Below are positions 32,917-64,000 of a DNA stretch of 64,000 nucleotides, piece after piece (the first letter of the stretch is position 1; every line of letters starts with the position of its first letter). The stretch comes from Deltaproteobacteria bacterium (lineage in GTDB: Bacteria > Desulfobacterota > GWC2-55-46), in assembly GCA_015075075.1 (NCBI GenBank), contig JABTVA010000002.1:65985-129984 (forward strand), read 5' to 3'. A program made the translations under genes and the position numbers. A model generated the notes under the pieces. The model saw nothing but the letters and a program-made list of their open reading frames with translations, was not told where the DNA came from and ran no database searches.

Positions 32917-33279
32917 TTGAAAAAATCCAAGGACATCACCAGCACTCGCGTCTGCCCGTCTTGCGGGAAGGCCTTCATCTGGTTCGTCGAGACCCCGCTT
33001 TCATGCCCTTACTGCGGCTATCTGCCTCGCGACCAAAGGGGTGAAATGAGGACCTCCCTGGAGAGGACGTTCGAGCTCAAACTTGGCAAAAAAACCCTCA
33101 CGGCGGACCTCCTTGATTATTCGGCGTCCGGGGTGAGGCTTTCCTGCCCGGAGCGCATAGGCACGGACACGCTCGTGTCCATAGACATAACTGAATTGGG
33201 CATTCACAGGTCCGCAAGGGCCGTCTGGACCATGCCGCTATTGCCGGGGGTGGCGATGGCGGGGTTCAAGTTCATCTGA
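32917..33279 (+). CDS. PilZ-domain c-di-GMP-binding protein with N-terminal C4 zinc ribbon
   Basis: CPSC-x14-CPYC zinc ribbon. PilZ motifs RGEMR (RxxxR) and DYSASG (DxSxxG). TTG start immediately after an in-frame stop. Confidence 0.6.
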   Translation: MKKSKDITSTRVCPSCGKAFIWFVETPLSCPYCGYLPRDQRGEMRTSLERTFELKLGKKTLTADLLDYSASGVRLSCPERIGTDTLVSIDITELGIHRSARAVWTMPLLPGVAMAGFKFI

Positions 33280-33289
33280 GGGGAAATCC

Positions 33290-33874
33290 ATGTTCTCAAG
33301 GCACCTGGTTAAGATGCTCACGTGCGCGCTTTTTGCGCTCTTTCTGGCCGGCGCGCCCGCCAACGCCGCCAATGAGGCGGGCGGGTCCGAATACCTGATA
33401 GGCCCGGAGGACGTGCTCGAAATAGTGGTCTGGAGGAATACCGAATTATCAAGACAGGTCACGGTGAGGCCCGACGGCCGGATAACGCTGCCGCTCATAG
33501 GCGAACTCCCCGCCGCAGGCCTCACGCCCGAGAAGCTCAGGGCGGAGATAGTCGAGCGCCTCAAGGAGTACCAGCAGAGCGCGGTCGTAGCCTCCGTAAT
33601 AGTGCAGAGCGTCAACAGCTACAGGGTGTACGTCCTCGGGCAGGTGCAGGTGCCCGGGAGCTACACCCTTAAGTCCAGGACCACGGTCCTGCAGGCATTG
33701 TCGCTCGCCGGTGGTTTCAGCCAGTTCGCGTCCAAGAACAAGATAGTGCTGATAAGAAAACGGGCCGACGGACTCGATGACAAGATCCAGGTAAAGTTCA
33801 ACGACCTGGTATACGACGAAGAGAGCCGCGCGAACGAGTACCTTTTGCCGGGAGACACGATTTTTGTTCCGTAG
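33290..33874 (+). CDS. polysaccharide export outer-membrane/periplasmic protein (Wza/Poly_export family, PEP-CTERM-locus type)
   Basis: Signal peptide, Poly_export motif (IGPEDVLEIVVW...DGRITLPLIGEL) and an SLBB domain. Confidence 0.8.
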   Translation: MFSRHLVKMLTCALFALFLAGAPANAANEAGGSEYLIGPEDVLEIVVWRNTELSRQVTVRPDGRITLPLIGELPAAGLTPEKLRAEIVERLKEYQQSAVVASVIVQSVNSYRVYVLGQVQVPGSYTLKSRTTVLQALSLAGGFSQFASKNKIVLIRKRADGLDDKIQVKFNDLVYDEESRANEYLLPGDTIFVP

Positions 33875-34994
33875 GATGCTCCTTACCGCTCTTTTATTGT
33901 CGGTCCCGGCCGGGGAGGCATGGGCATGGGTCGCAAGGCCGTCGCTATCGACCGAGTTCCGCTTCGAGAAGAACTCCGGCCCCGCATCGGACGGAAGCGG
34001 CTCAGGGGACGACAGTATTCTGAGGGCGTCTCCCAGGCTCGACCTGGAAAATAGCGGCATGAACATCGGCTTCAACGCCGGGTACGCGTTTACCTGGAAT
34101 CAATACCTCGGCGACCACGACAGGGACTGGACAGCCCATAATGCCGTCGCTGGACTTGACATGAGGATATCACCTTTGACCGAGCTGCAGGCAGGATACG
34201 ACTTCACCTACACGAGGGAGCCGAGGGAGGCGACCACGACGGGCATCGAGGCCTTCCGGGCCGCCGATATCCGCTCGCATAACGCCAATGTAAGCGGCTC
34301 TCGCCTGATAAGTCCCAGGCTCACGGGCAGGCTTTCGCTTTCCGGCGAGGTCCTCGAGTTCGAGGACCCCTCTGCAGTGGACAGCAGGACGCTCTCGGCT
34401 GGCGCGGCCGGAGAGTTCCGCTGGACTGAAAGGACGAGCTTCACCCCGGCTTATGAGTACACGAACCTCGATTACGACTCCGGCCCGTCGACGGAGATAC
34501 AGAGCCATTCGCTTAACGCCGGCTTTTCAACCCGGCACTCGGAGAGCCTTGCCTATAACATTTCCGCGGGCCTGGCCTATTCGACCGGCCTAAGCGACCG
34601 GGTAGACTGGACTGCCGGGGCCGGCCTTTCAAAGTCGTTCCAGCGGGGCTCCGTTTCGGCCTCCTACTCGAGAGGCGTATCGGACAGCTCCGGGCTGGCC
34701 GATGAGCTCAACATAAGCGAGACCGTCACGGCGGGCCTCTCCAGGAACCTGAGCGATTCCGCCTCTTTCTCCTTGACCGCAGGCTATGCCAGGAACAGGA
34801 CAAGACCGGCAGGCGCAGTGGACCTTCGGTCATATTCAGCGGACATGGGCGTAAGGTGGCAACTGCTACGCTGGGCGACAATCGGCGCCGGCATAAGCCA
34901 CTTTAACCAGCTCTCCTACGGGACTACCGGCTCTGACGTGGAGAGGAACGCCTTTTACCTCAACCTGACACTGCAGAGCGAATACAGGCCCTAA
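33864..34994 (+). CDS. predicted outer-membrane beta-barrel protein, EPS-locus associated
   Basis: Signal peptide, alternating amphipathic strands rich in Gly/Ser/Tyr, and an aromatic C-terminus. Confidence 0.5.
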   Translation: MFRRMLLTALLLSVPAGEAWAWVARPSLSTEFRFEKNSGPASDGSGSGDDSILRASPRLDLENSGMNIGFNAGYAFTWNQYLGDHDRDWTAHNAVAGLDMRISPLTELQAGYDFTYTREPREATTTGIEAFRAADIRSHNANVSGSRLISPRLTGRLSLSGEVLEFEDPSAVDSRTLSAGAAGEFRWTERTSFTPAYEYTNLDYDSGPSTEIQSHSLNAGFSTRHSESLAYNISAGLAYSTGLSDRVDWTAGAGLSKSFQRGSVSASYSRGVSDSSGLADELNISETVTAGLSRNLSDSASFSLTAGYARNRTRPAGAVDLRSYSADMGVRWQLLRWATIGAGISHFNQLSYGTTGSDVERNAFYLNLTLQSEYRP

Positions 34995-34995
34995 A

Positions 34996-36504
34996 ATGGA
35001 AAACTTCAACATCATATCTTTTCTTGAGGCGGCATACAGGCGCAAGTGGCTCGTCATCGCGCCTGCCGCGCTGGGCACCGCCGTAGCCGCCGTAGTGGCC
35101 TGGCTCATGCCCTCGTATTACCTCTCTGCGACGCTGATACTCGTCGAGCAGCAGCAGGTGCCTGCGTCCTACGTGACCCCTACGGATGTCACTCCCTTCA
35201 ACCAGCGCCTCAATACCATCCGCCAGCAGATACTCAGCAGGCCGAACCTCGAGCGCATCATAAGCGAGTTCAACCTCCACCAGACGAGCGGCGGCCTCCT
35301 TGAGCGGGCGGCTTCAAAGGCGGGTATCGACATGAGCAGGCCGCTAAGCCGCGAGAGCGCCCTTAACCGGCTTGTATCGAGCATCGAGATACGGCTCGTG
35401 GGAGAGAGGAGGGCGGAGGACGCGTTCAGCATAAGCTACTCGGGCACCGACCCCTACACGACCATGCAGGTCACGAGCGCCCTCGCGTCGATGTTCATAA
35501 ACGAGAACCTTAAGCGGAGAGAAATGTACGCAGAGGGGACCTCGGAGTTCCTGTCGGACGAGCTGGCGCGGGCCAAGAGCGAGCTCGAGACCCAGGAGCG
35601 CGCGGTGAGGGACTTCAAGGAAAGATACATGGGAGGGCTCCCTGAGCAGCTTGACGCGAACCTCCGGACGCTCGACAGGCTTCAGCTGGACCTCCAGGCG
35701 GTGCGGCTCGAGATAAAAAGCGCGGAGGACAGGAAGGTCCAGCTCGAAACCCAGCTTAGTTCGGCCGTGGGCGCAGTATCAGGCACCCAGGTCAACCCAC
35801 TGGTGGTGGAGATGGAGAGCCTGCAAAGGGAGCTTACGCAGCTCCTTTCGCAGTATAACGAGAACTACCCTGACGTGATCATCATAAGGAACCGGCTCAA
35901 GGAGCTCGGGAGCCTCCTTGCTTCGAACAGGACCGGGGCTGCCGAAGCCCAGGCCGTGGCACTCCCCGGGCCTGAGATACGGAACCCCGAGGCCTATAAC
36001 AACCTCGTCTCGGTCGAATCGCAGCTGCGCTCCCTGAGGACAAGGGAGCGCGAACTGAACGAGAACATCCGCGCCCTTGAGAAGCGGGTCGAGGAGACCC
36101 CTGCCAATGAGCAGCGGTACACGGACCTTAACAGGAATTACCAGATATCCTTCGCCAACTACCAGAACCTCCTTGAAAAGAGCCTGAACGCGCGCCTTGC
36201 CGAGAACCTCGAGAAGAGGCAAAAAGGCGAAAGGTTCAGGATAATCGACCCGGCAAACCTGCCGGAGGGGCCGTACAAGCCGAAACGAAGCCTCATCGCG
36301 CTGGCCGGCACGGTCATCGGGGCCGGTCTCGGGTTTGGCATCATATTCCTCCTTGAGTTCACGAGCCCGGCGTTCAGGAAACCGGAGGAGTTCGAGGGCC
36401 TCCTGGACTTCCAGGTCATTGCCTCGATCCCGGCTTTTGAGCCGGACCCGCATGCGAAAAAGGGCAGGTTCGGTAGGATACGCGGAGGGAGCGGAGATAG
36501 ATGA
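34996..36504 (+). CDS. polysaccharide chain-length determinant protein (Wzz/GumC-like, PEP-CTERM-locus type)
   Basis: 502 aa. N-terminal TM helix, long periplasmic coiled-coil region and a C-terminal TM helix (LIALAGTVIGAGLGFGIIFLLEF). Confidence 0.8.
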   Translation: MENFNIISFLEAAYRRKWLVIAPAALGTAVAAVVAWLMPSYYLSATLILVEQQQVPASYVTPTDVTPFNQRLNTIRQQILSRPNLERIISEFNLHQTSGGLLERAASKAGIDMSRPLSRESALNRLVSSIEIRLVGERRAEDAFSISYSGTDPYTTMQVTSALASMFINENLKRREMYAEGTSEFLSDELARAKSELETQERAVRDFKERYMGGLPEQLDANLRTLDRLQLDLQAVRLEIKSAEDRKVQLETQLSSAVGAVSGTQVNPLVVEMESLQRELTQLLSQYNENYPDVIIIRNRLKELGSLLASNRTGAAEAQAVALPGPEIRNPEAYNNLVSVESQLRSLRTRERELNENIRALEKRVEETPANEQRYTDLNRNYQISFANYQNLLEKSLNARLAENLEKRQKGERFRIIDPANLPEGPYKPKRSLIALAGTVIGAGLGFGIIFLLEFTSPAFRKPEEFEGLLDFQVIASIPAFEPDPHAKKGRFGRIRGGSGDR

Positions 36505-37983
36505 GCTTTCTTTCGAGATTCCTCGGCAAGAATAAAAAGGCCGAGCCCGAAAAAGCCCCGCCTTCCGGCCGTCTTTCCATAGTCGGGAAAAGGTCCCGGC
36601 CCCTTTCCCGCATATGGACGGTCGGCGGGGGCAAGGGCGGGGTGGGCAAAAGCGTCGTCGCCGCGAACTTCGCGACACTCCTTGCCGGCTCCGGACGTAG
36701 GACGCTCATCGTTGACGCGGACTTCGGCGCGGCCAACCTGCATACCCTTTTCGGGATACAGGGCTCCAACCCGTCCCTTTCGAGCTTTCTTAAGTCGGAG
36801 GTCGCGGATATCAGGAGGCTCATAACCGGGACAGGAATCCAGAAACTCGATATAATTACCGGTGCGATGGACTCGCTCAATATCGCGGACGTGGACGCAT
36901 CGTCGCTTATGCGCCTGCAGCGGGCCATCTCGGAGCTCGACTACGACCATGTCGTCCTCGACCTCTCGCCCGGCACATCATCCGACGTGCTCGACTGCTT
37001 TTTGATGTCCGACGAAGGGATACTCGTGACCACACCTGAGCCCACCTCGATAGAGAACACCTACAGGTTCATGAAGTGCCTGTTCCTCCGGAGGATACGG
37101 GCGATCATAAACTCCGGCGAGCCGGGGCGCCTGAAGGAGACGCTCAAGGCGGCCCTGGAGCGCGACCCGAGGATAGGGACCGTCTCGGAGTTCATGAAGA
37201 ACTTCAAGCTCAGCGCCGGAAGCGGATCGGCCCCTGAGGAGATCCTGGGAGGCATGGGGGGCCACCTCGTCGTAAACAGGACCAGGCTCCCGGAGGACCG
37301 CGCAATCGGGCCGCATATGCAGCGTGCCTGCATGAGCTACTTCGGCGTGCGCTTCAACCACCTCGGAGACATCGGCCAGGACACCTCCATAGAAGATTCC
37401 GTCCGGGCGAGAAGGCCTCTCGTCAGGGACTATCCGGGGAGCCCCGCCGCGCTCTCGCTCGTCTCCTGTTTCAGGAAGCTCTCATCCATCGAGGCGGGAA
37501 AAGGCCGGCAGGAGGCCGATAAAGGGGCTTATGCAGATATGAACCAGCGAGTGAACATCGACTATTACGAGCTCTTGGATATCGCCCGGGGCGGCTCCCT
37601 CCGAGGTGGAAGAGGCTTACAGGAAGGCAATATCCGACCTGGGCGGCGACTCCGTGGCCATCTACTCGCTCTACACCCCGGAGGAGAAGGAAGAGCTTAT
37701 CTCCCGGCTTAACGAGGCATACGAGGTCTTGAGCGACCCTGAGAGGAGGGCCGCGTATGACGCCAGGGCCGCCAGCAGGCTGGAGCCAGCCGTAACGCGC
37801 GATTCGAGCTGGGCGACCTGGGCCCCAGCGGTCGACGCCCGCCACTTTAAAAGGTGCGGAAGACCACGGGCTTCGCCAGGCGCCGGTCTCCGCCTCCGGC
37901 GAAAACTCCATCATAACGGAACAGTACCGGATCCTGTATTCAAGGATACACTGGATAGCCGAGGAGGCAGCTCAAGGTCATAG
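36501..37983 (+). CDS. MinD/ParA-family P-loop ATPase with C-terminal degenerate J-like domain (frameshift near 37590; C-terminal boundary uncertain)
   Basis: Deviant Walker A GGGKGGVGKS and the IVDADFGAANL motif. The C-terminus reads IDYYELLDIARG then, in a shifted frame, EVEEAYRKAISDLGGDSVAIYSLYTPEEKEELISRLNEAYEVLSDPERRAAYD. This is J-domain-like but lacks HPD. Sequence after about 37800 is probably not part of the protein. Confidence 0.55.
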
Positions 37984-38516
37984 CCGTGACCAGCGCCGTA
38001 AAGGGAGAGGGCAAATCGGTCACCTCGCTCAACCTGGCGTACGTCACGGCATGCGAGTTCAAGAAAGGGTGCTCCTTGTAGAGTGCGATTTGCGGAAACC
38101 TCTACCCTTCGAGGATGATGAAGAACGCGAGGAAGAGTGCGGCCTCGCGGAGGTACTCGAGCAGGGGCGGACATACGGGACGCCATCTGCCGCGTGGACG
38201 GGACAAGCCCATCTCTCTTACCTCCGGCACGTGCACGAGGAGCTCATCCGAGCTCATAGACTCGCCGTATCTCAAGTCCATACTCAAGGGGTTCAGGGAC
38301 GAATTCGACTATGTATTCGTGGACACCCCGCCGATACTGCCCCTGGCTGACATGAACATCATATCGAGGATTGTGGACGGGACGATACTGGTAGTGAGGG
38401 CCGGGGCCACCCCGAAGAAGGTGGTCCTGAAGGCGGCCCAATCCCTTTCAGAGGGGCGTTTCATAGGCATAGTGCTTAACGGGGCCGATACCGCGCTGGC
38501 CAGCTACTATTATTAG
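37850..38516 (+). CDS. BY-kinase (CpsD/Wzc-type protein-tyrosine autokinase), fragmented by several frameshifts; boundaries approximate
   Basis: Pieces in three frames: SIITEQYRILYSRIHWIAEEAAQ, KVIAVTSAVKGEGKSVTSLNLA (Walker A), RVLLVECDLRKP (Walker A'), GLAEVLEQG..ADIRDAICRVDG, ISLTSGTCTRSSSELIDSPYLKSIL, FDYVFVDTPP (Walker B), and the Tyr cluster ASYYY at the C-terminus. Confidence 0.65.
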
Positions 38517-38524: not shown

Positions 38525-39913
38525 ATGCTCTTCAACAGGCACCCTTCCAAGCGACTGCTGTACATAGCCCTCATCGAGGGCCTTCTCATATTCCTTGCCG
38601 CGCTCGTGTCGGTTGCGATACGCCTCTCTTTCGAAGGCGGCGCAATGGTCAAATACGACCCCAGCTATCTCAAGAGCCTGGTGCTGACCGCGACTTACCT
38701 CGTCACCTTCTACTACTTCGACCTCTACACGCCCGACATGTACAGGCCGAGCCGCTATATGTTCTCAAGGCTCATAAAAGGCATGATAGTGGCGGCCATA
38801 ATACAGTTCAGCATCTTCTACATCATCCCGTCCCTCAAGATATGGCGGGGCATACTGCTCATCAACATGCTCATAATGCCCTCGGCCATCATATTCTTCA
38901 GGCTCGTATTCTCCAAGATACTGAAGATAAAGCTCCCCGGGAAGCGCGTCCTCATCATCGGCGCCGGCGACCTCGCGAAAAGGATCGGGAGCGAGATATA
39001 CACCAAGCCCGAGCACGGCCTCAATCTCGTGGGCTTCATCGACGACGACCCGACCAAATACGGGGTATCCATCGTAAACCCGGGCGTCATCGGCGGGTAC
39101 GGCGACATCTCGAGGCTCGCGGACGAGCAGAATATCGACCTCATAATAGTCGCTCTCCCGGACAGGAGGGCCAAGCTCCCCATGTCGGCACTCCTCGACT
39201 GCAAGCTCAAGGGCATATCAGTCGAGGAAAGCGAGACCTTCAAGGAGCGGCTCACCGGCAAGATACCTCTCGACCACCTGAAACCGAGCTGGATGGTCTT
39301 CTCTGACGGCTTCAGGTCGCTCAGGTCCAGGAAGTTCGTAAAGAGGTCCCTCGACATCGTCTTCGCGGCCCTCTGGCTCGTGGTGGCTGCGCCGGTAATG
39401 CTCCTTACCTCGATGATAATCAAGCTCGAATCAAAGGGGCCTGTCATATTCAAGCAGGTCAGGGTTGGAGAGCACGGCAAGGAGTTCAACATCTACAAAT
39501 TCCGCTCGATGCGCCAGGACGCGGAGGCCAAGACCGGGCCGGTGTGGGCGGTGGCCAACGACGACAGGGTCACCCTGGTGGGGCGCATAATAAGGAAGCT
39601 CCGCATAGACGAACTCCCGCAGCTCGTAAACGTCCTTAAGGGAGATATGAGCTTCGTCGGCCCGAGGCCCGAGCGCCCGTATTTCGTCAACAAGCTCAGG
39701 GAGGAGATCCCGTACTACAATATCAGGACGGTGGTGAAGCCGGGCCTGACCGGGTGGGCGCAGATAAAATATCCATACGGCGCGAACATGGAGGACGCGG
39801 TCGAGAAGCTCCAGTATGAGATATTTTATATCAAGAACATGTCCCCTCTCCTCGACTTCATGATAATGTTCTGGACCATAAAAGTCGTGCTCACCGGCAA
39901 GGGGGCGAGATAG
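38525..39913 (+). CDS. exopolysaccharide polyprenyl glycosylphosphotransferase (WbaP/EpsB-type priming sugar transferase)
   Basis: 462 aa. Four or five N-terminal TM helices. C-terminal bacterial sugar transferase domain (KFRSM...DELPQLVNVLKGDMSFVGPRPERP). Confidence 0.85.
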   Translation: MLFNRHPSKRLLYIALIEGLLIFLAALVSVAIRLSFEGGAMVKYDPSYLKSLVLTATYLVTFYYFDLYTPDMYRPSRYMFSRLIKGMIVAAIIQFSIFYIIPSLKIWRGILLINMLIMPSAIIFFRLVFSKILKIKLPGKRVLIIGAGDLAKRIGSEIYTKPEHGLNLVGFIDDDPTKYGVSIVNPGVIGGYGDISRLADEQNIDLIIVALPDRRAKLPMSALLDCKLKGISVEESETFKERLTGKIPLDHLKPSWMVFSDGFRSLRSRKFVKRSLDIVFAALWLVVAAPVMLLTSMIIKLESKGPVIFKQVRVGEHGKEFNIYKFRSMRQDAEAKTGPVWAVANDDRVTLVGRIIRKLRIDELPQLVNVLKGDMSFVGPRPERPYFVNKLREEIPYYNIRTVVKPGLTGWAQIKYPYGANMEDAVEKLQYEIFYIKNMSPLLDFMIMFWTIKVVLTGKGAR

Positions 39914-40488: not shown

Positions 40489-40499
40489 GAAGAAGCACC

Positions 40500-40529: not shown

Positions 40530-40561
40530 ACGGGTGCAAAAAATCCTAAGTGCACCTGAAC

Positions 40562-56846: not shown

Positions 56847-58037
56847 ATGAAGGTACTTGTAACGGACGGGGATAACAGGGCCGCCCTGGCAATTACGCGC
56901 TCGCTGGGCAAAGCCGGCCACCACGTGATTGTGGGCGAAAAGAAGGAGACCTCCCTCTCATCGGTTTCATCCTATTGCCGCGCAAGGTTCGCATACCCGG
57001 ACCCTGCCTTCGACCCGCGCGGGTTCATAGAGGCCATCCTCGGGCAGGCGTCAAGGGAGGGGATCGACGTCATAATGCCCGTATCCGACATCTCGACCTT
57101 TCTCGTTACAGCCAACAGGCATGTGTTCGCCGCAAGCAAGGTCCCGTTCGCGCCCTTCGAGACGCTGGACCTGGCTGCGCGGAAGGACCGCCTCTTCGAG
57201 GCCGCCGGCAGGCTCAATATACCGGCGCCCAGGACGGTCGTCTTAAGGCAAAAGGGCGACGGCTCCAAAAAAATGGATATCGATTTCCCGGTCGTGGTAA
57301 AGCCCCACAGGTCCAGGATACAGGGCCCGGACGGGAAGTGGCTTTCGGCCTCTGTAAGCTACGCCTCCGACCCGAAGGAGCTTCAGCAGGTGCTCGGGAT
57401 GAAAAAAGACGAGTACCCGCTTCTCCTGCAGGAAAGGATAAACGGACCAGGCATAGGGGTCTTCGCCTGCTATGACCGGGGCGAGCTCAAGGCCATATTC
57501 AGCCACAGGAGGCTCAGGGAGAAGCCTCCTTCAGGCGGGGTAAGCGTCCTTTGCGAGAGCGTCCCCGTGCCGGCCCTTGCGAGGGAGTATACCGAGGCCC
57601 TCCTCGGGAGCCTCGGCTGGCACGGCGTTGCCATGGTGGAGTTCAAGCTGGACGAACGCGACGGGCTCCCGAAGCTCATGGAGATAAACGGGCGCTTCTG
57701 GGGCTCGCTCCAGCTGGCAATCGACGCGGGCGTCGACTTCCCGTCCATGCTGATGGATATCGCGATGGAGAAGGACGTCCGGCCATGTTTCGAGTACAGG
57801 ACCGGGAGGAGGACGCGCTGGTTCTGGGGAGACGTGGATTCGCTCCTCATGGTGCTCCTTAAAAAAGGACGGTCGCTCAAGCTCCCGCCGGGCCACCCGG
57901 GGAAACTCGGGTCCATATTGAGGTTCCTCAAGCCGTCGCTCGGCGGCACTCGCTTTGACGTATTGAGGCTCGACGACCCGCGGCCCTGGCTGTACGAGAC
58001 CTCCATGTGGTTCAGGAACCAGCTGGGCAAGGGGTAA
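56847..58037 (+). CDS. ATP-grasp domain protein (carboxylate-amine ligase)
   Basis: 396 aa with pre-ATP-grasp and ATP-grasp motifs (EYPLLLQERINGPGIGVF...MEINGRFWGS). Confidence 0.7.
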   Translation: MKVLVTDGDNRAALAITRSLGKAGHHVIVGEKKETSLSSVSSYCRARFAYPDPAFDPRGFIEAILGQASREGIDVIMPVSDISTFLVTANRHVFAASKVPFAPFETLDLAARKDRLFEAAGRLNIPAPRTVVLRQKGDGSKKMDIDFPVVVKPHRSRIQGPDGKWLSASVSYASDPKELQQVLGMKKDEYPLLLQERINGPGIGVFACYDRGELKAIFSHRRLREKPPSGGVSVLCESVPVPALAREYTEALLGSLGWHGVAMVEFKLDERDGLPKLMEINGRFWGSLQLAIDAGVDFPSMLMDIAMEKDVRPCFEYRTGRRTRWFWGDVDSLLMVLLKKGRSLKLPPGHPGKLGSILRFLKPSLGGTRFDVLRLDDPRPWLYETSMWFRNQLGKG

Positions 58038-58040: not shown

Positions 58041-58784
58041 ATGCGGGGCATATTTCACGCGCATTCCACCTATTCGCATGACGGCAGATGCACCCTCCCG
58101 GAGCTCGTCTCGCTCTGCAAGGCGCAGGGGCTCGGGTTCGTAGCGCTTTCGGAACACGCGGAGGACATGGATTCCGCCAGGATGGACGCCTTTACCTCTG
58201 AGTGCAAAGAGCTCTCAAAAAGGGGCGTAATACTTATGCCCGGGCTCGAGTTCGGGTTCAGCGAATATCCCAAGCTGCACCTCCTGGGCATAGGCGTAAC
58301 CCGCTTTATCCCGCCGGGAGACATCTCGCGGACCATAGACGCCATACGGGAGCAGGGCGGGCTTTCGGTAATAGCCCATCCGGCCAGGAACGGGCACTTC
58401 GTCCCGGAGCACATTAAAGGGAAGCTCGACGGGCTCGAGGTCTGGAACGCCTCGTATGACAGCCGCTACCTGCCGCACCACAGGTCAGTGGCGCTATACC
58501 GTTCGCTAAGGAGAATGAACGGTTCACTGCTGGCTTTCGGGGGGCTCGATTTCCATACGGCCCGGAACTTCAGGGAACTGGACCTGGTAGTCGAGGGCAG
58601 TCCAGCGGATGCCGAGGAGCTTCTTCTTCTCCTCAGGAATGGAAGCTACACAAACAAGGGAAAGCTCTTTACCATAGGCTCCAGGCAGGAATTCGGATAT
58701 ATTACGGTGGGCGGGATACGGCTTGGCAGGGTGTTCCTCGAGGGGGCGGACACACTTGCATCCCTTACGCGGGGGAACAGGTGA
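58041..58784 (+). CDS. PHP-domain metal-dependent phosphoesterase (possible CpsB-like protein-tyrosine phosphatase)
   Basis: Begins HAHSTYSHDG, typical of the PHP superfamily. 247 aa, similar in size to CpsB. Confidence 0.6.
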   Translation: MRGIFHAHSTYSHDGRCTLPELVSLCKAQGLGFVALSEHAEDMDSARMDAFTSECKELSKRGVILMPGLEFGFSEYPKLHLLGIGVTRFIPPGDISRTIDAIREQGGLSVIAHPARNGHFVPEHIKGKLDGLEVWNASYDSRYLPHHRSVALYRSLRRMNGSLLAFGGLDFHTARNFRELDLVVEGSPADAEELLLLLRNGSYTNKGKLFTIGSRQEFGYITVGGIRLGRVFLEGADTLASLTRGNR

Positions 58785-59938
58785 CGGAAGCGCTGCATGC
58801 CATCGGGATCGCCGAGCTCATTTTCTGGCTTTCCCTCGCGGCCGTTTTCTACGCTTATTTCGGATATCCCGCACTGCTTTTCCTCCTCTCAGGCCTTATG
58901 CGGAGAAAAATCCGCGCTGGGAACAGGGACTATACGCCAACGGTTTCGCTCCTCATACCGGTCCATAACGAGGAGGCCGTAATCGAACGGAAGCTCAGGA
59001 ATACCCTCTCAATCGATTATCCCGCCGACAGGCTCGAAATCATCATAGTATCCGACGGCTCCACGGACCGGACCGGCGAGATAGTCGGGCGTAACATCTC
59101 CGGAAGGATGCGCTTTCTCAAGCTCCCGATGAGAAGCGGCAAGGCCGCTGCGCTAAATTACGGCCACAAGTCCGCAACGGGCGAAATAGTCGTATTCTCG
59201 GACAGCTCCATAATGCTCGATAAAAACGCCATCAGGAGCATAGTATTGAAATTCCAGGACCCGGCAGTCGGGTGCGTATCGGGCGAGGACCACATAGAGG
59301 GGCCCGGCGGAGAGGGGCTCTACGGGAGATACGAGCTCTTCCTCAGGAACCTCGAATCGAGGGTGCATTCCATAGTCGGCGCGAGCGGTTCTTTTTACGC
59401 CGAAAGAAGGGAGGCCTGCGAGCCTTTCAGGGAGGGGCTTGCCCCGGACTTCCTCTCGGTCCTTAATATAGTCGACAAGGGCTACAGGGCGGTAACGGAG
59501 CCCGCGGCTTTTGGGACCATGACGAGCGTAAAAGGCGTTAAAGACGAGTTCAGGCGGAAGGCCAGGACGCTCGTGAGGGGCATGGCGGCGCTTTTCAGCA
59601 ATGCCCGCCTTATGAACCCATTAAGGACCGGCGTCTTCTCGCTGGAGCTCCTGTCGCACAAGGTCGCGCGCTGGCTGGTCCCGTTCTTTATGATTTCGCT
59701 CCTCGTATCTAACGCATTTTCCTCCGGAGCCCGCCCTATGCGGTCTTCGCGCCCAGGCCTCTTTTCTGACGCCCTTGCAGGCCTCGCATTTTTCCGTATC
59801 GGCGGCCTGCATGAAAGGACCCTCGGCAGGGTCCCGCTTTATTTCACGGCCGTGAACGCGGCCATCCTTTACGCCTGGTTCCTTTACGCGACAGGCATCC
59901 GCATGGAGATATGGAACCCCTCCAAAAGGCAGGCCTGA
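58781..59938 (+). CDS. family 2 glycosyltransferase, membrane-anchored
   Basis: 385 aa. N-terminal TM helix, GT2 motifs (LIPVHNEE...IIVSDGSTD) and C-terminal TM helices. Confidence 0.8.
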   Translation: MTEALHAIGIAELIFWLSLAAVFYAYFGYPALLFLLSGLMRRKIRAGNRDYTPTVSLLIPVHNEEAVIERKLRNTLSIDYPADRLEIIIVSDGSTDRTGEIVGRNISGRMRFLKLPMRSGKAAALNYGHKSATGEIVVFSDSSIMLDKNAIRSIVLKFQDPAVGCVSGEDHIEGPGGEGLYGRYELFLRNLESRVHSIVGASGSFYAERREACEPFREGLAPDFLSVLNIVDKGYRAVTEPAAFGTMTSVKGVKDEFRRKARTLVRGMAALFSNARLMNPLRTGVFSLELLSHKVARWLVPFFMISLLVSNAFSSGARPMRSSRPGLFSDALAGLAFFRIGGLHERTLGRVPLYFTAVNAAILYAWFLYATGIRMEIWNPSKRQA

Positions 59939-59939: not shown

Positions 59940-60752
59940 ATGAGCGAAAGACCTCTTTTTTTCAGAAACGGCGCCAGCAGCCTCTTCGGGGTCCTGCACG
60001 AGCCGGGAATCAGAAAAGGCCCGGCCTTCGTCTTCTGCTCTCCTTTTGCCGAGGAGAAGCTCTGGGCGCACAGGGTCTTCGTCAACTTCGCGCGCGAGCT
60101 CTCAGGCCGCGGCCACGCCGTCCTCAGGTTCGACTACATGGGTAACGGCGATAGCGACGGCGACTTCGAGGAGACGACCCTCCAGACATATATCTCTGAT
60201 GTAAGGGCCGCGGCCGATTTCACCCTGAACTCCGCGGGAGAAAAGGACGGGCTCTGCCTGCTGGGCCTGGGCCTCGGCGCTACCTTTGCCGCGCTCGCGG
60301 CCGAGGAGATGCCCGGGACCTCGGGTCTCGTTCTGTGGAACCCGATCGTAAACGGGGCAGCCTACATGCAGGAGATGCTCAAAATAAACCTGACGACCCA
60401 GATGTCCGTGTACAAGGAGATACGCCGGACAAGGGCGGAGCTTGCGCGCTTGATGTCCGAGGGCGCGACAGTCAACGTTGACGGCTACGAGATGTCGAAC
60501 GCGCTCTACGAGCAGGTCTCCGCGATAAGCCTCGCCGGTGAAAAGAAACGGTTCTCCGGGCGGACTCTTGTTGTCGAGATCAACCGCAAGGAGAAGGAGC
60601 CAGGGAAGGATATGGCACAGCTTGCCTCGGCGTACGAGAGCGCGGGCCTGTCTATGGTAATCGAAGAGCCTTTCTGGAAAGAGATAAAGGCATATTCGGC
60701 TAAAGCCGAAAACCTCTTCAGCGCGACACTCGAATGGCTGGAACAGCGATAA
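59940..60752 (+). CDS. alpha/beta hydrolase, exosortase-A-system-associated (hydrolase 1)
   Basis: 270 aa with a nucleophile-elbow-like GLGLG motif. Confidence 0.65.
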   Translation: MSERPLFFRNGASSLFGVLHEPGIRKGPAFVFCSPFAEEKLWAHRVFVNFARELSGRGHAVLRFDYMGNGDSDGDFEETTLQTYISDVRAAADFTLNSAGEKDGLCLLGLGLGATFAALAAEEMPGTSGLVLWNPIVNGAAYMQEMLKINLTTQMSVYKEIRRTRAELARLMSEGATVNVDGYEMSNALYEQVSAISLAGEKKRFSGRTLVVEINRKEKEPGKDMAQLASAYESAGLSMVIEEPFWKEIKAYSAKAENLFSATLEWLEQR

Positions 60753-61678
60753 CAGAGATGCGCCCTGTCGTATTCAGGAACAGGGATGGGCTTGCCCTCC
60801 ACGGGATTCTACACATGCCCGCCGGAAAGCCCCGGCAGCAGGGCATAATCATCTTGAGCCCGGGGATAAAGAGCAGGGTCGCGCCGCACAGGCTTTATGT
60901 AAAGATGTCCCGGCGCTTCGTGGAGCTCGGATACGCCGTTCTGAGGTTCGACCCGGCCGGCATGGGCGACTCGGAGGGAGAGATTGACGAAAGGTTCGCA
61001 GCCGACGTCTACGGCTCCATCCAGGTGGGCCGGTTCGTGGGCGACACCGTGGCGGCAATGGACTGGATGCAAAAGGAGCTCGGCATAAAGAGCTTCATCC
61101 TTTCAGGCCTCTGCGGCGGGGCGATAACGGGGCTCCTGGCCGGCGCGGGCGATAACAGGGTGGATTCTCTCCTGGGGCTCGGCATCCCGGTGATACTTGA
61201 CGGCTCGAAGGTGGACAAGTCCAAGTTCCTTACGAAAAGCCAGACCCAGAGCATAAAAAGAGACTACCTGCGGAAGGTCTTCGACTTGAGGGCCTGGGGC
61301 CGCCTCCTTTCGTTCAGGAGCGACTACAAGCTCCTTTTCAGGGTCTTTGCCGGGGGCAAGGGCAAGGGTGCCGCGGAAGGACAGCCGCCTTCCGCAGCCG
61401 GCTCCGGCGAGCAGGGCAACTTCAATTCCCTCTTCCCCGGGGCCTTCGAGGGCATGTCCCGCTCAAGGAGGATATGCCTCATATTCAGCGAGGCCGACAG
61501 GCTTTACTGGGAGTTCGAGGAGAAATTCGCGAACAACCACAAGGACGCCGTCGCAAGGGCCGGCAAAAACCTCGAGATACATATAACCAGGAACGCTAAC
61601 CACGTCTTCACCTTCAAAGAGTGGCAGGATAGCGCCTTTGATACAATGTGCGGCTGGCTTTCGAGGAACTACAGATGA
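60734..61678 (+). CDS. alpha/beta hydrolase, exosortase-A-system-associated (hydrolase 2, paralog)
   Basis: 314 aa with a GLCGG elbow. Paralogous to the preceding gene. Confidence 0.65.
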   Translation: MAGTAITEMRPVVFRNRDGLALHGILHMPAGKPRQQGIIILSPGIKSRVAPHRLYVKMSRRFVELGYAVLRFDPAGMGDSEGEIDERFAADVYGSIQVGRFVGDTVAAMDWMQKELGIKSFILSGLCGGAITGLLAGAGDNRVDSLLGLGIPVILDGSKVDKSKFLTKSQTQSIKRDYLRKVFDLRAWGRLLSFRSDYKLLFRVFAGGKGKGAAEGQPPSAAGSGEQGNFNSLFPGAFEGMSRSRRICLIFSEADRLYWEFEEKFANNHKDAVARAGKNLEIHITRNANHVFTFKEWQDSAFDTMCGWLSRNYR

Positions 61679-61706
61679 ACGGTTCAGCGGCTGGGGCGCA
61701 TAAGGT

Positions 61707-62545
61707 TTGGCAGTCCGGGCACGCGCCAGAGACCGGGACCCGGAGAAGGGAGCTTTTTTCTTGAAACAATTGCTCAAATCGGTGCTTAAGGCACTGGGCC
61801 TGCTTGAATTCGCCAAAGCGGCCTATTACCGCAGGAAGAAGACCGCAAGAGAGGTACTGGGCATAAGGAGGCGCTTCTGGACCACCTCTCCTTCACTTTA
61901 CAGGAGGGTCGTGAAGTCGGGAGGCGAACAGTATCAGCTCGAGCGCTTCCTGCAGAACGTGAAGGCAGGAGACACCGTGTGGGATGTCGGCTCGTACGTC
62001 GGCATATATTCCATATTCTCGAGCCACCCCGCGGGCCGCGACGGGGCTGTCTACGCATTCGAGCCGGAGCCGGCAGCGCATGCGCTGCTTAACGGGAACA
62101 TCGCGCTTAACGGGATAGGGAACGTCAAACCGATGCGAATGGCCCTGAGCGACAGTAACGGAAAGGGCAGGATATACTCCGCGCTCACGGACGCCGTTGC
62201 GATCCACAGCTTGAGGCACTACGCAAGCCTTTCCGAATCAGGCTTCGAGATAGACCTCGCGACCGGCGACAGCCTTGTTCAAGAGGGCCGCGTCCCCCCG
62301 CCTGACGTCGTGAAAGTGGATGTCGAAGGGGCGGATTACCATGTCCTCAAGGGGATGCGCAGTGCGCTTTCCAGGCCGGAATGCAGGTTCCTGCTGATAG
62401 AGGTGCACCTAAGCTGCTACCCGGCTTCGGAGCAAGCGAGCGGGATGTCAGGCAGGCAATAAGGGAGGCCGGCTTCACGGTCGACGAGGAACTGCAAAGG
62501 GGCGATGAAATCCACCTGATCTGCTCCAAACACCCGGGGCAATGA
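61707..62545 (+). CDS. FkbM-family methyltransferase (frameshift near 62430-62460)
   Basis: Motifs VWDVGSYVGIYS and AFEPEP. The C-terminus continues in another frame as ...DVRQAIREAGFTVDEELQRGDEIHLICSKHPGQ. Confidence 0.65.
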
Positions 62546-64000
62546 CCGGTTCGACGGAATTTAAGAAGCGGGCAGCCGGGTTCCTCTACGGCACCGGGGG
62601 GTCTTTGAAGACCCAGATGCTCCGCTCTGGTTTCTGGGTGGGCCTCTCAAGCCTTGGCAGCAACCTCCTGGTCCTTGCGCGCTCCATAGTGCTGGCGCGC
62701 ATACTTGCGCCGGAGGTCTTCGGCCTCATGGCCATATGCCTCGTGATCATCAGGAGCCTCGACCTTTTTACGGAGACCGGCTACGGCGCCGCGCTCATAC
62801 ACAGGCAGAAGGGGTTTGAAGAGGCCAAGGACACGGCGTTCACTCTTTTGGTCCTACGCGGCCTTGCGCTGACCGCTATAACGGTGCTCATCGCCCCCGT
62901 CGCCGCGTCTTACTACGAAATACCCCTCCTCGATGTGCTCGTCAAGGTGATAGCCCTGAGCTTCATAATAGGTGGGTTCTACAACATAAACGCCGTCAGC
63001 TACCAGAAGAACCTCGACTTCAGGAGGCTCACCTACCTCGAGCTCCTTCAAAACGCCGCCAACACGGCGGCGGTGGTCGCAATGGCCTTCTATTTCAGGA
63101 GCGTATGGGCGCTGGTCATCGGGCACGTCACTGCGTCGGTCCTCGGCGTCGTAATCAGCTATATGCTCATACCTGGCAGGCCCAGGTTCAGGCTGGACCT
63201 CAATATCGCGAAGGAGCTCTTCGCCTACGGGAAGTTCATAACCGGCCTGACCATAGTCGTCTTTTTCACCATAGAGATGGGGACGTTCGTCATCGGCAAG
63301 GTCTCCGGGATGGAGGCACTCGGTTACTACGTCATCGCCTTCACGCTCGCGAACCTGCCCACCTCCCATTTCTCGAAAATAGTGTCCAGGATAGTCTTCC
63401 CCGTGTACAGCAAGCTCCAGGGCGACATGGCGCTTTTGAGGGAGACGTACTTCAAGGTGCTGAGGGTCGTAAGCATGGTCGCCATACCGGCGTCCGCCGG
63501 ACTGGCCGTGCTTTCGACCGAAATAATCGAGGTGGTTTACGGGAAAAACTGGCTCCCCGCGGCTGACGCGCTAAGGGTGCTCGCCCTGTTCGGCTGCATC
63601 AGGGCCATATCGTCGCTGAACGGGTACGTCTACAACGCCATAGGGAAGCCCGGCATAAGCTTCTACATCAACGCGATAAGGTTCGCGGTCTCCGCCGTGA
63701 TGATATACCCCATGACGCTCTGGTACGGCATAACTGGCGCGGCCCTGACCCTTACCTCGGCTATCGCGCTCGAATTCCTTATCGGCTCGGCCTACCTTTC
63801 ACGCACGATAGGCCTGCCGCTCCGAAAGGCCGGGGCCGGGCTGCTGAGGGCCACCCTTCTGAGCACCGGCATGGCCGCGGCCCTCTTCCATATCAAGGAC
63901 TACATGGACGTGAACGTCTATTCCCTCGTTGCGCTGGTCGCGGCCGGAGCGGGCATGTACATACTTTTCAACATCAGGGAGCTTTTCTCGATCTTCAGGG
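62543..64000 (+). CDS. Wzx-like polysaccharide flippase / MOP-superfamily protein (3'-partial, runs off window)
   Basis: ATG at 62543 overlaps the previous stop. At least 12 predicted TM helices, no stop before the window end. Confidence 0.7.

Follow-up and report, generated by a model that had tools for sequence, protein, structure and literature searches.

The window, a 64,000-nt stretch of DNA from a 'Deltaproteobacteria'/Thermodesulfobacteriota MAG, carries a one-strand gene island for the synthesis, chemical decoration and export of a surface polysaccharide, centred on an exosortase of the XrtW type, which has been little studied. Two-thirds of a ~50-kb XrtW-type exosortase/PEP-CTERM exopolysaccharide island fall within this region. 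In the ORF listing, forward-strand genes follow one another without a break from 32917 up to the window end, their junctions short or overlapping; 32917 and 64000 are not the ends of the island itself. A further ~17 kb, recovered from another assembly, contains four GT4 glycosyltransferases, a Wzy-like gene, a CapK-like ligase, a second AsnB and a dehydrogenase/epimerase fusion. A preliminary description had credited the region with a "complete set" of accessory genes, which was an overstatement with a third of the island lying beyond 64000. Every gene class that it listed was nevertheless found in place and co-directional on the forward strand (ORF listing, NCBIfam and Pfam), the AsnB, ACP, ligase, FemAB, ATP-grasp and deacetylase accessory genes among them, and the locus is indeed an exosortase-centred EPS island rather than an ordinary O-antigen cluster. 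Families were assigned by NCBIfam and Pfam scans, with bit scores judged against curated cutoffs (Table 1).

Table 1. Features of the island and its left flank. Scores are in bits.
Feature	Coordinates	Strand	Basis
tRNA-Arg(ACG)	30494..30570	-	ARAGORN; Rfam tRNA, 67.6
AcpS-type 4'-phosphopantetheinyl transferase	31465..31827	+	TIGR00516, 79.7 vs 59.8 cutoff
LuxR/CsgD-type regulator	32030..32673	+	214 aa in intact assemblies
Small zinc-ribbon + PilZ protein	32917..33279	+	Pfam PilZ PF07238, 24.6 vs 22.5 (weak)
Wza/OPX-type polysaccharide export protein	33290..33874	+	TIGR03027, 152.9 (cutoff 180); Poly_export + SLBB domains
Putative outer-membrane beta-barrel	33864..34994	+	TIGR03016, 38, N-terminus only; OMP_b-brl, 22.7 (both weak)
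Polysaccharide co-polymerase (chain-length determinant)	34996..36504	+	TIGR03007, 257.8 (cutoff 278.85)
MinD/ParA-like ATPase	36501..37542	+	346 aa in intact assemblies
J-like domain + BY-type tyrosine autokinase fusion	37539..38516	+	328 aa in intact assemblies
Priming polyprenyl-phosphate glycosylphosphotransferase	38525..39913	+	TIGR03013, 485.8 vs 393.35
RfaH-like NusG paralogue	39959..40447	+	TIGR01955, 95.6 (below cutoff 144.5)
Leader hairpin, then ops element	40528..40573	+	ops GGCGGTAGCCTG at 40562-40573
AsnB-type glutamine amidotransferase 1	40587..42563	+	TIGR01536, 509 vs 267; TIGR03108, 427.7 (cutoff 816.9)
Acyl/aminoacyl carrier protein, 86 aa	42589..42849	+	Weak ACP family matches; PP-binding domain; IDSTG motif
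Adenylate-forming ligase 1, acyl-CoA-synthetase type	42946..44523	+	TIGR03098, 361 (cutoff 592)
WbuX-like PP-loop N-acetyl-sugar amidotransferase homologue	44520..45515	+	TIGR03573, 141.2 (cutoff 203.2); Zn-ribbon + SGGKDS motifs
Adenylate-forming ligase 2	45607..47166	+	TIGR03098, 495.7 (cutoff 592); TIGR01733, 285.9
Polysaccharide deacetylase 1	47163..48002	+	TIGR03006, 383.9 vs 276.2
Exosortase W + fused C-terminal EpsI domain	47989..49524	+	NF038142, 521.7 vs 425; TIGR02914, 76.1 vs 42.8
Exported SGNH-fold esterase/acyltransferase, 279 aa	49521..50360	+	No family match; fold from predicted structure
FemAB-family protein	50364..51404	+	TIGR03019, 317.7 vs 260.35; FemX in PDB
DegT-type sugar aminotransferase	51409..52611	+	PF01041, 136.5
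Acetyltransf_6 (FemAB/CelD-like GNAT) protein	52614..53678	+	PF13480, 120.8
GT2 glycosyltransferase + Acetyltransf_6 fusion	53682..55814	+	PF00535, 124.4; PF13480, 87.2
Polysaccharide deacetylase 2	55827..56840	+	337 aa in Logan assemblies; 333 aa as called in NCBI MAG
ATP-grasp ligase	56847..58037	+	PF15632, 38.5; PDB entry 2pn1
PHP-family metal-dependent phosphoesterase	58041..58784	+	NF038032, 65.7 (cutoff 80); PF02811
GT2 glycosyltransferase, membrane-spanning segments	58781..59938	+	
Alpha/beta hydrolase, hydr2-like	59940..60752	+	TIGR03101, 122.5 (cutoff 202.75)
Alpha/beta hydrolase, hydr1-like	60734..61678	+	TIGR03100, 91.6 (cutoff 168.45)
FkbM-family methyltransferase	61707..62545	+	TIGR01444, 100.5 vs 37.7
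MOP-family Wzx flippase	62542..64000	+	~7 codons lost at window end

The island encodes a Wzx/Wzy-dependent heteropolysaccharide pathway, comprising a priming transferase, GT2 and GT4 glycosyltransferases, a flippase, a Wzy-like polymerase/ligase, a co-polymerase, a BY-kinase, a Wza-like exporter and an outer-membrane barrel. The counterpart of the flippase in locus L085 (gene 11810-13288) has a Polysacc_synt domain and scores 225 bits with NF007773. Alongside this pathway, the island has a dense complement of sugar-tailoring genes and the gene for the XrtW-family exosortase fused to EpsI. A UDP-GlcNAc 6-dehydrogenase (WbpA-like) gene was not seen in the island, and the WbpB-like assignment was weak (60.8 bits); both points weigh against the explanation that we prefer below. 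The tRNA-Arg(ACG) gene marks the left edge of a low-GC junction preceding the island, where GC falls to 0.506 at 30-32 kb. The AcpS-type transferase, called as a 120-aa ACPS in L088, may activate the carrier protein of the island, to which it is tied only by adjacency; no AcpS-type gene was found in 80 of 80 related loci. Homologues of the LuxR/CsgD-type regulator occupy the equivalent position in L019, L028, L055 and L059.

The genes form two operons. Operon 1 runs from the PilZ gene, whose product is a candidate c-di-GMP receptor, to the rfaH-like gene, and its products serve in export, chain-length control and priming. It is preceded by a promoter-like site (32852-32880), and the rfaH-like gene is followed by the sequence GGCAGC-N8-GCTGCC-TTTTT. 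The presence of a hairpin and an ops element between the rfaH-like gene and AsnB splits the island in two; operon 2 begins at this leader and extends from AsnB onward for at least ~40 kb. The element GGCGGTAGCCTG is the 12-nt ops sequence conserved in RfaH operons of E. coli, and an exact copy precedes the AsnB start by 14 nt. The rfaH-AsnB gap contained the 12-mer GGCGGTAGC[CT]T[GA] in 13 of the 14 related loci having that adjacency. Exact GGCGGTAG occurred 49 times in 1.28 Mb of loci, with ~20 of the 49 in the context TGCACCnGAAn-ops. The hairpin ended 3 nt upstream of ops in most of 20 folded loci, and the stem sequences in L006 and L055 were unrelated. For operon 2, no sigma-70 promoter of convincing quality was found. 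The leader is predicted to act like JUMPstart, recruiting the RfaH-like factor where operon 2 begins. JUMPstart was the top Rfam family at the ops site with a score of 15.9, below the gathering score of 35; this shortfall, that of the RfaH-like protein against the RfaH equivalog cutoff, and the negative promoter result for operon 2 count against the explanation of the island that we prefer.

Five genes of the island are broken in the window by indels or a stop codon. The LuxR/CsgD-type gene is frameshifted near 32160, and the end of the MinD gene is frameshifted such that it reads through into the BY-kinase gene. The latter is split across several frames, with ~30 differences over 37493-38217, the first three of which fall in the MinD gene end. 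The FkbM C-terminus is frameshifted at 62410-62411, and deacetylase 2 has TAA at 55881-55883 where other assemblies have TAC. Five interrupted genes in one island could mean real pseudogenisation, but decay is very improbable, as four other assemblies with >99.6% identical DNA keep all five genes intact. Furthermore, the differences fall in tight clusters in which indels are mixed with substitutions, and similar damage affects bamA, an essential gene located elsewhere in the window. The clustering and the broken bamA point to local assembly or consensus errors. The BY-kinase of the preliminary description is present, with the correction that it is a fusion to a J-like domain, which lacks the HPD motif, and that such error clusters disrupt it here. 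In the intact copy, which scored 143.4 bits with TIGR01007 (cutoff 108.05), Walker motifs and a C-terminal YYY are present.

The exosortase had been described as an XrtA-EpsI fusion. The EpsI fusion was borne out, but the XrtA identity was not; the protein exceeded the cutoff of NF038142, the exception-level NCBIfam model for exosortase W. An XrtA system would account for the homology of the exosortase core to XrtA (184.9 bits) and for XrtA-system families being the best or near-best matches of many genes. However, the XrtA score is under the cutoff of 208, the XrtW score is 337 bits higher, and XrtD also scores above XrtA. Relative to XrtA systems, only the priming glycosyltransferase, deacetylase and FemAB protein pass equivalog cutoffs (TIGR03013, TIGR03006 and TIGR03019). 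The remaining accessory genes are best matches below cutoff, with at least nine XrtA-system marker families falling short, and no TIGR03099 decarboxylase, TIGR03015 ATPase or PrsK/PrsR/PrsT gene is in view. As far as curated family membership goes, an XrtA system is already refuted, and we regard it as extremely improbable overall. Membership of three families had been singled out for checking; TIGR03019 was confirmed, while TIGR03098 (361 and 496 bits against 592) and TIGR03108 (428 bits, and 510 for the second AsnB copy outside the window, against 817) were not. The latter proteins are thus homologous to the XrtA-system families without being equivalogs. With accessory scores mostly below these cutoffs, function is not transferable from those families, which are themselves uncharacterised; the searchable literature likewise holds no account of the accessory-gene chemistry, as previously stated.

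Relatives are encoded in 471 stretches of GTDB species representatives. XrtW was the top family in all 10 relatives scanned and exceeded its cutoff in nine, including Nitrospira defluvii. The catalytic residues Cys190, Arg234, His250 and His254 do not vary among 15 homologues. The core genes are arranged collinearly in Nitrospira, Acidobacteriota and 'Deltaproteobacteria' MAGs, and distant lineages share the order primGT-RfaH-AsnB-ACP-ligase-(WbuX)-ligase-deacetylase-XrtW-SGNH-FemAB-DegT-GNAT6. In agreement with the preliminary description, two heuristic scans of all six frames detected no PEP-CTERM-like C terminus in the window. The second scan detected none in the ~17 kb downstream either (~81 kb in total), and the use of XrtW by this organism is therefore inferred from its relatives. 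In 8 related loci, canonical PEP-CTERM tails were found no more than 10 kb from XrtW, and 7 of 8 proteins tested passed TIGR02595.

The reading that we consider somewhat probable is that of an XrtW EPS island with an ops-led operon 2, in which an aminoacylated sugar is the acceptor for PEP-CTERM proteins. The RfaH-like factor from operon 1 would be recruited at ops and carry RNA polymerase through operon 2. Amino sugars would be made by DegT and a GFO-type dehydrogenase encoded downstream, and the two deacetylases would remove N-acetyl groups. The freed amines could be re-acylated with amino acids or acyl groups by two routes, one through the three FemAB/Acetyltransf_6 enzymes and the other through the carrier protein, presumably loaded by ligases 1 and 2. 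The carrier protein has the Ser attachment motif (DS motif). Ligase 2 resembles a stand-alone NRPS adenylation domain (331 bits with NRPS adenylation domains versus 217 with acyl-CoA ligases). The 331 bits are the overall score with LgrA, in which the best stretch is the second adenylation domain with the FD motif aligned; ligase 2 retains the FD-motif Asp that binds the alpha-amino group. Carboxylates may be amidated by the two AsnB proteins, the WbuX-like enzyme and the ATP-grasp ligase. XrtW, with its Cys-Arg-His active site, would cleave PEP-CTERM proteins encoded elsewhere in the genome and most likely join them to the free amine of the aminoacylated sugar. The SGNH-like protein noted earlier has an SGNH-hydrolase fold in its AlphaFold model (pLDDT 89.4), and Foldseek matched that model to PatB, sialate O-acetylesterases and PAF-AH with E down to 4e-7.

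The accessory enzymes might instead only decorate an EPS or capsule, altering charge, hydrophobicity, or phage or immune evasion, while XrtW would work apart from that chemistry, for instance as a maturation protease releasing PEP-CTERM proteins that are not attached to the glycan. O-antigens and capsules without any sorting enzyme commonly contain N-acyl, aminoacyl and amidated sugars, which speaks for decoration alone, as does the lack of experimental support for a glycan acceptor. We nevertheless judge this unlikely, because the deacetylase, FemAB and AsnB genes are tightly and collinearly linked to XrtW across phyla, and the TIGR03006, TIGR03019 and TIGR03108 families were defined through co-distribution with exosortases. 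The FemAB/sortase and VimA/PorU precedents also point the opposite way (PMC7468200). The acceptor for any exosortase is experimentally unknown (PMC9850573).

A different acceptor is conceivable if the AsnB-ACP-ligase-ligase-hydrolase module does not decorate the polysaccharide but builds a separate lipid-like or small molecule, such as an N-acyl amino acid or aminolipid, to which XrtW would attach the cleaved PEP-CTERM proteins. The best, though weak, NCBIfam match of the carrier protein is the ornithine-lipid ACP (45 bits), the best PDB match of ligase 1 is a feruloyl/fatty-acyl-CoA synthetase (225 bits), and the two alpha/beta hydrolases could serve as thioesterases or acyltransferases. The cassette also behaves as a separable module, since some XrtW loci (L019 and L055) lack it yet retain the deacetylase and FemAB genes, and rhombosortase offers a precedent in attachment to a glycerophosphoethanolamine-containing moiety (cited in PMC7468200). 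Even so, the cassette lies within the ops-led operon, between priming/export genes and glycosyltransferases, with sugar-acting neighbours on both sides (WbuX-like, deacetylase and DegT), and no acyltransferase of the lipid-synthesis type (OlsA/OlsB or PlsC) was found. We therefore regard a separate acceptor as distinctly unlikely.

The island is not a novel kind of system but a well-preserved example of one that is recognised and experimentally unexplored. The aminoacylated-sugar acceptor that we favour has a parallel in the T9SS, for which Veith et al. 2020 (PMC7468200) demonstrated linkage of the cargo to a 2-N-seryl or 2-N-glycyl diamino-uronic sugar. Those authors drew on gene context and mutant data to infer that Wbp and Vim enzymes, possibly with an AsnB homologue, make the sugar, and they proposed an equivalent logic for exosortase loci (PMC7468200). 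VimA and the FemAB protein of the island both match TIGR03019.

From position 32917 to the end of the window the forward strand carries a single unbroken chain of open reading frames with short or overlapping junctions. NCBIfam and Pfam scans confirmed at this locus each of the gene classes named in the preliminary description, and these are collected with other features in the table. All the parts of a Wzx/Wzy-dependent polysaccharide system are present: a priming glycosyltransferase, a PCP and a Wza-like exporter in the window, a flippase at its end and, in near-identical contigs (GCA_023384475.1 and several public sequencing runs), a Wzy_C protein 3 kb further on. In those contigs the island extends ~17 kb beyond position 64000, so that about two-thirds of its ~50 kb fall inside the window. 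The accessory set had been called complete, but the window does not cover the whole island, and the second AsnB, the GT4 transferases and the Wzy_C protein lie beyond 64000. Among the downstream products, the secreted He_PIG/pectate-lyase-like beta-helix protein is a possible EPS depolymerase.

Features of the XrtW island and of its continuation past the window. Scores are bit scores, with the cutoff of the model in brackets.
Feature	Position	Strand	Evidence or remark
PilZ protein		+	24.6 bits (22.5), weak
Wza-like exporter		+	TIGR03027, 152.9 bits (180)
Putative outer-membrane barrel		+	TIGR03016, 38.2 bits (90.85)
Chain-length determinant		+	TIGR03007, 257.8 bits (278.85)
MinD/ParA-like ATPase and J-like-BY-kinase	36501-38516 (intact copy: contig L088, 7506-9529)	+	NCBIfam/Pfam; ATGA overlap
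Priming transferase		+	TIGR03013, 485.8 bits (393.35)
RfaH-like NusG paralogue		+	TIGR01955, 95.6 bits (144.5)
Hairpin-ops leader	40528-40573	+	also in related loci L005, L006, L007, L014, L017, L018, L019, L021, L030, L031, L034-L036, L041, L044, L050, L055, L075, L079
AsnB (in window)	40587-42563	+	TIGR03108, 427.7 bits (816.9)
Carrier protein, 86 aa	42589-42849	+	IDSTG attachment motif
Two adenylate-forming ligases	42946-44523; 45607-47166	+	TIGR03098, 361 and 496 bits (592)
WbuX-like PP-loop protein		+	NCBIfam/Pfam
Two polysaccharide deacetylases		+	one with TIGR03006, 383.9 bits (276.2)
Exosortase fused to EpsI	47989-49524	+	XrtW
SGNH-fold protein	49521-50360	+	AlphaFold, Foldseek
FemAB protein		+	TIGR03019, 317.7 bits (260.35); two more Acetyltransf_6 domains in the island
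DegT, ATP-grasp and PHP proteins	PHP: 58041-58784	+	NCBIfam/Pfam
Two GT2 transferases, FkbM		+	NCBIfam/Pfam
Two alpha/beta hydrolases		+	hydr2 (TIGR03101), 122.5 bits (203); hydr1 (TIGR03100), 91.6 bits (168)
MOP flippase	runs off window end	+
Flippase end, two GT4, Wzy_C/PEP_O_lig_1-like protein	past window end
Two further GT4 (one stp1-like), CapK/PaaK-like ligase, second AsnB	next downstream
GFO_IDH_MocA-epimerase fusion, more glycosyltransferases	next downstream
Secreted He_PIG/beta-helix protein, fn3 lipoprotein	downstream	opposite
ElyC-like DUF218 protein, then histidine kinase	end of downstream stretch
Second AsnB through histidine kinase	contig L092, 11408-21404		past window end
Second AsnB, score			TIGR03108, 510 bits (816.9)
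PEP_O_lig_1 match			TIGR03097, 186.7 bits (188.1)
stp1 match			TIGR03087, 227 bits (317)
TIGR03018 match			141.5 bits (230.65)
TIGR03088 match			166 bits (409)

Upstream of ~30.5 kb lie housekeeping genes (bamA, lysS, ald, macAB-tolC, folD and a K+/H+ antiporter gene). After tRNA-Arg come, in order, a SemiSWEET-like gene, a gene for an AcpS-type phosphopantetheinyl transferase, a LuxR/CsgD-type regulator gene and the PilZ gene. The first two, encoding a small membrane protein of the MtN3/PQ-loop type and the transferase, occupy 30952-31827, between tRNA-Arg and the island regulator; AcpS adjoins XrtW in none of the 80 related loci. Recent horizontal transfer of the island is without support, because its GC content (~0.60) equals that of the flanks and is lower only at the 30-32 kb junction. 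No riboswitch or other known RNA was detected in the leaders, with only tRNA reaching the Rfam gathering threshold.

The exosortase belongs to the exosortase W family (XrtW). It scored 521.7 bits against NF038142 (cutoff 425), residues 16-500 aligning to positions 3-492 of the 494 in the model. The eight-transmembrane exosortase core was recognized by TIGR02602 (174.5 bits against 105.55), residues Cys-190, Arg-234, His-250 and His-254 do not vary among 15 aligned homologues, and PF11984 was found in all close homologues. An EpsI domain is fused at the C terminus (residues 337-500; TIGR02914, 76.1 bits against 42.8). The preliminary description of an XrtA-EpsI fusion was therefore right as to the fusion and wrong as to the family: the XrtA model TIGR03109 gave 184.9 bits, under its cutoff of 208 and lower than both XrtW and XrtD (212.3 bits), and the curated cutoffs rule out exosortase A. 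A scan of GTDB species representatives revealed 471 stretches encoding relatives, the best 55% identical, mainly in Nitrospira, Vicinamibacterales and other Acidobacteriota, Thermodesulfovibrionia and "Deltaproteobacteria" MAGs. XrtW was the top family in all ten relatives scanned (from Nitrospira, Thermodesulfovibrionia and "Delta" MAGs), nine of which, including that of Nitrospira defluvii, were above the cutoff. Our literature search found no published study on XrtW, for which a curated model exists, and nothing specific on the combination of accessory genes.

The XrtA/PEP-CTERM EPS system was reportedly described by Haft et al. in 2006 (BMC Biol 4:29), with families TIGR03006-03019 and 03087-03109. 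Three accessory genes of the island pass the cutoffs of that system (TIGR03013, TIGR03006 and TIGR03019); for the remainder, an XrtA-system family is the best or near-best match yet scores below its cutoff. Placement in the exosortase-associated families thus held for TIGR03019 and failed for TIGR03098 (both ligases) and TIGR03108 (both AsnB proteins). With most accessory genes below these cutoffs and three above, the locus is, as judged by its sequence, a diverged sister of the XrtA system, outside its membership.

The window comes from a MAG that bears the label Deltaproteobacteria bacterium (locus-tag prefix HS130) and is 99.6-99.9% identical to four other assemblies. Its differences from them, indels mixed with substitutions, fall into tight clusters (32082-32160, 37493-38217, 55140-55162, 59720-59768 and 62410-62411), and it has TAA at 55881-55883 where the others have TAC. 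The genes for LuxR, MinD, the BY-kinase, deacetylase 2 and FkbM are broken in the window only. Such interruptions could mark real pseudogenes, but we reject this reading because the essential bamA gene (12.2-14.9 kb) is likewise split across frames, at ~12400-12800, and because these genes are unbroken in the four other assemblies; the interruptions most likely stem from errors in assembly or consensus. In its intact form, taken from near-identical contig L088, the BY-kinase is a 328-residue fusion of a J-like domain lacking the HPD motif with a BY-kinase domain (TIGR01007, 143.4 bits against 108.05). It has the Walker A, A' and B motifs GEGKS, VECDLRKP and VFVDTPP and a C-terminal SYYY. The pair formed by this fusion and the MinD-like ATPase is kept in nine "Delta"-type XrtW loci and is not found in the Nitrospira and Acidobacteriota loci.

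Comparison of the window proteins with the 80 related loci by tblastn revealed a collinear core on one strand. Its order is primGT - RfaH - AsnB - ACP - ligase - (WbuX) - ligase - deacetylase - XrtW, continuing as SGNH - FemAB - DegT - GNAT6 - (GT2-GNAT6) - deacetylase 2 - (ATP-grasp). One related locus (L044) has a gene order identical to that of the window, and the Nitrospira loci are nearly so. The AsnB-ACP-ligase cassette is missing from a subset of "Delta" loci (L019, L055), in which deacetylase-XrtW-FemAB is kept. The collinear core is common to Nitrospira, Acidobacteriota and Thermodesulfobacteriota and belongs to a compact, testable parts list for the XrtW variant.

The gap of 139 nt between the rfaH-like gene and AsnB holds a terminator-like hairpin with a T-run and a second hairpin (GGGTGCA...TGCACC). 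Three nucleotides beyond the latter, at 40562-40573, stands GGCGGTAGCCTG, an exact match, on the non-template strand of an operon leader, to the E. coli ops consensus GGCGGTAGnnTG. The identical 12-mer is present in this gap in 13 of the 14 related loci having the same adjacency, and in loci devoid of the AsnB-ACP-ligase cassette it lies directly upstream of deacetylase-XrtW. Exact GGCGGTAG occurs 49 times in 1.28 Mb of loci, about 20 of these occurrences being the leader site in the context TGCACCnGAAn; minimum-free-energy folds placed a hairpin ending 3 nt before ops in most of 20 loci. In two of these (L006 and L055) the stems are unrelated in sequence while the hairpin is kept, which amounts to covariation. 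The hairpin-ops leader spans loci from Nitrospira, Acidobacteriota-related and "Delta" MAG genomes.

The best Rfam match to the ops site, JUMPstart (RF01707), is below threshold (15.9 against 35 bits, E 0.42), and the RfaH-like protein falls under the TIGR01955 equivalog cutoff. The resemblance to RfaH/ops would accordingly be a functional one, membership of the RfaH and JUMPstart families not being established. A consensus scan of 40490-40560 flagged no sigma-70 promoter for the genes from AsnB onward. We infer two operons, the first ending with the rfaH-like gene and the second of at least ~40 kb. The RfaH-like product of the first would be recruited at ops and keep RNA polymerase processive through the second. 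The island presents an E. coli-type ops/JUMPstart leader together with an RfaH-like gene in phyla where RfaH control is seldom considered.

The second ligase, although matched as an "exosortase-associated acyl-CoA ligase", is much nearer to the amino-acid adenylation domains of NRPS enzymes. Its overall match to LgrA was 331 bits, the top-scoring acyl-CoA ligase reaching 217 bits, and its best stretch aligned to the second adenylation domain of LgrA. It retains the FD-motif Asp, which binds the alpha-amino group, whereas the first ligase resembles acyl-CoA/feruloyl-CoA synthetases and does not have this residue. The NRPS-like character and the FD-motif Asp suggest that enzymes of the TIGR03098 type charge the neighboring carrier protein with an amino acid. 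Together, the ligases and the adjacent carrier protein look like an aminoacyl/acyl-carrier module, and an "acyl-CoA ligase" resembling an amino-acid adenylation domain, beside a carrier protein, belongs on the XrtW parts list.

The protein directly after the exosortase gave no Pfam or NCBIfam match and belongs to a family of more than 1,000 homologues. Its AlphaFold model (pLDDT 89.4) has the SGNH-hydrolase fold, Foldseek matched it with probability 1.0 to PatB, sialate O-acetylesterase and PAF-AH, and residues Ser-56, Gly-99, Asn-101, Asp-251 and His-254 are invariant; its earlier designation as SGNH-like is therefore correct. PDB matches obtained for it from sequence alone were spurious designer proteins. 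The same type of search gave weak matches for the PHP phosphoesterase, which also has weak NCBIfam matches, and a weak match for the ATP-grasp protein. The CpsB/YwqE phosphotyrosine phosphatases of Gram-positive bacteria are PHP-family enzymes, and the PHP protein of the island is of about the same size. It could act with the BY-kinase as its phosphatase, a role that is a guess given its weak PDB matches.

No PEP-CTERM-like tail was found in the window by two six-frame heuristic scans, which bears out the earlier statement that a substrate is absent from it, or in the ~17 kb downstream; the secreted beta-helix protein and the fn3 lipoprotein encoded there have no sorting tail. Eight related loci have canonical tails ([VA]PEP..LL.GSG...RR) no more than 10 kb from XrtW, and seven of eight tested proteins near relatives' XrtW passed TIGR02595, one being a "choice-of-anchor N" protein. 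From these neighbors, XrtW appears to use the ordinary PEP-CTERM signal. It is reasonable to expect the cargo genes elsewhere in the genome. In a Rokubacteria MAG (locus L075, 1393-2256) a "choice-of-anchor N" protein with a PEP-CTERM tail is encoded ~8 kb upstream of the XrtW homologue. The model for such proteins, NF038141, has the accession neighboring that of XrtW, and they are a candidate dedicated substrate family.

The two deacetylases, three FemAB/Acetyltransf_6 domains, DegT, two AsnB proteins, WbuX-like protein and ATP-grasp protein, taken with the carrier module, would make an amino-sugar polysaccharide. Aminoacyl or acyl groups would take the place of its N-acetyl groups once these are stripped off, and its carboxylates would be amidated. 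Bacteria of the environment and of wastewater widely possess exosortase/PEP-CTERM systems, which genetics links to the formation of flocs and biofilms (PMC9850573, PMC7468200). The acceptor of exosortases is experimentally unknown (PMC9850573), and so is the part played by the AsnB, ligase, ACP, FemAB and hydrolase genes inherited with them (PMC9850573, PMC7468200). We tentatively raise the idea, which we consider rather unlikely as it stands, that the conserved XrtW core builds an aminoacyl-sugar acceptor used for the exosortase joining of PEP-CTERM proteins to EPS. The A-domain-like ligase and carrier protein, deacetylase, FemAB/GNAT6 and AsnB would then form a self-contained machine under the ops leader, attaching an amino acid with a free amine to a sugar within the lipid-linked repeat unit. 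XrtW would take that sugar-borne amine as its nucleophile, and PEP-CTERM proteins would become covalently joined to the exopolysaccharide. If this were true, the XrtW locus type, which also occurs in culturable Nitrospira, would be where the question of the exosortase acceptor, open since 2006, could be answered.

Among known systems, exosortase W (NF038142) is matched over the full length, core and fused EpsI alike, and nothing disqualifying was found. An island of the XrtW type is of a kind already present in curated models and anticipated in the literature; the locus is ordinary in kind, and this comparison by itself leaves current understanding unchanged. With the XrtA system the island shares the priming GT, PCP, BY-kinase, Wza-like exporter, outer-membrane protein, deacetylase, FemAB, AsnB, ligase, two hydrolases, stp-type GT4s and O-antigen-ligase-like protein. 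It differs in having an exosortase of another family, fused to EpsI, and in its additional second ligase, WbuX-like, SGNH, ATP-grasp and PHP proteins, GT2-GNAT fusion, MinD-like ATPase and J-like-BY-kinase fusion. The TIGR03099 decarboxylase, TIGR03015 ATPase and PrsKRT regulators of the XrtA system were not in view at the locus.

For the polysaccharide operons of enterobacteria, RfaH/ops and the JUMPstart leader were reportedly described by Bailey et al. in 1997. As there, a long polysaccharide operon of the island has the identical 12-nt element in its untranslated leader, with a (C)AGYGCA block upstream and an RfaH-like NusG paralogue encoded nearby. However, its lineages are far from the Gammaproteobacteria, and its hairpin lies upstream of ops and takes in the GTGCAC block. 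By analogy only, the stand-alone adenylation enzyme beside a small carrier protein recalls DltA/DltC of D-alanylation, and the exported SGNH-fold protein recalls DltD, which is SGNH-like; unlike in the Dlt system, no MBOAT (DltB) homologue was found.

In type IX secretion (T9SS), an amide bond joins cargo to a 2-N-seryl or 2-N-glycyl diamino-uronic sugar (Veith et al. 2020, PMC7468200). The same paper inferred that this linking sugar is made by Wbp enzymes, VimA (a TIGR03019 match), VimE (a deacetylase) and possibly an AsnB homologue, and proposed the same logic for exosortase loci. By analogy, the island fits that proposal. It has a VimA-like FemAB/TIGR03019 protein, a VimE-like deacetylase, an AsnB-type amidotransferase, a WbpE-like DegT protein and a Wzx flippase, and the set adjoins a transpeptidase-type sorting enzyme. 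That enzyme is an exosortase, unrelated to the PorU cysteine protease, and the Wbp/Vim pathway has nothing that corresponds to the carrier-protein and adenylation module. No WbpA (6-dehydrogenase) or WbpD (3-N-acetyltransferase) homologue was seen in the ~50-kb island; a weak UDP-GlcNAc 3-dehydrogenase-like domain of WbpB type (60.8 bits against 450) lies outside the window. In the sortase A system a FemAB-family enzyme equips a lipid-linked glycan precursor with an amino-acid nucleophile, by way of which a Cys transpeptidase anchors C-terminally tagged proteins. The logic of the island is, by analogy only, that of sortase A with the FemXAB peptidoglycan cross-bridge, with a transpeptidase of different fold, in a Gram-negative envelope, and with exopolysaccharide rather than peptidoglycan as the target.
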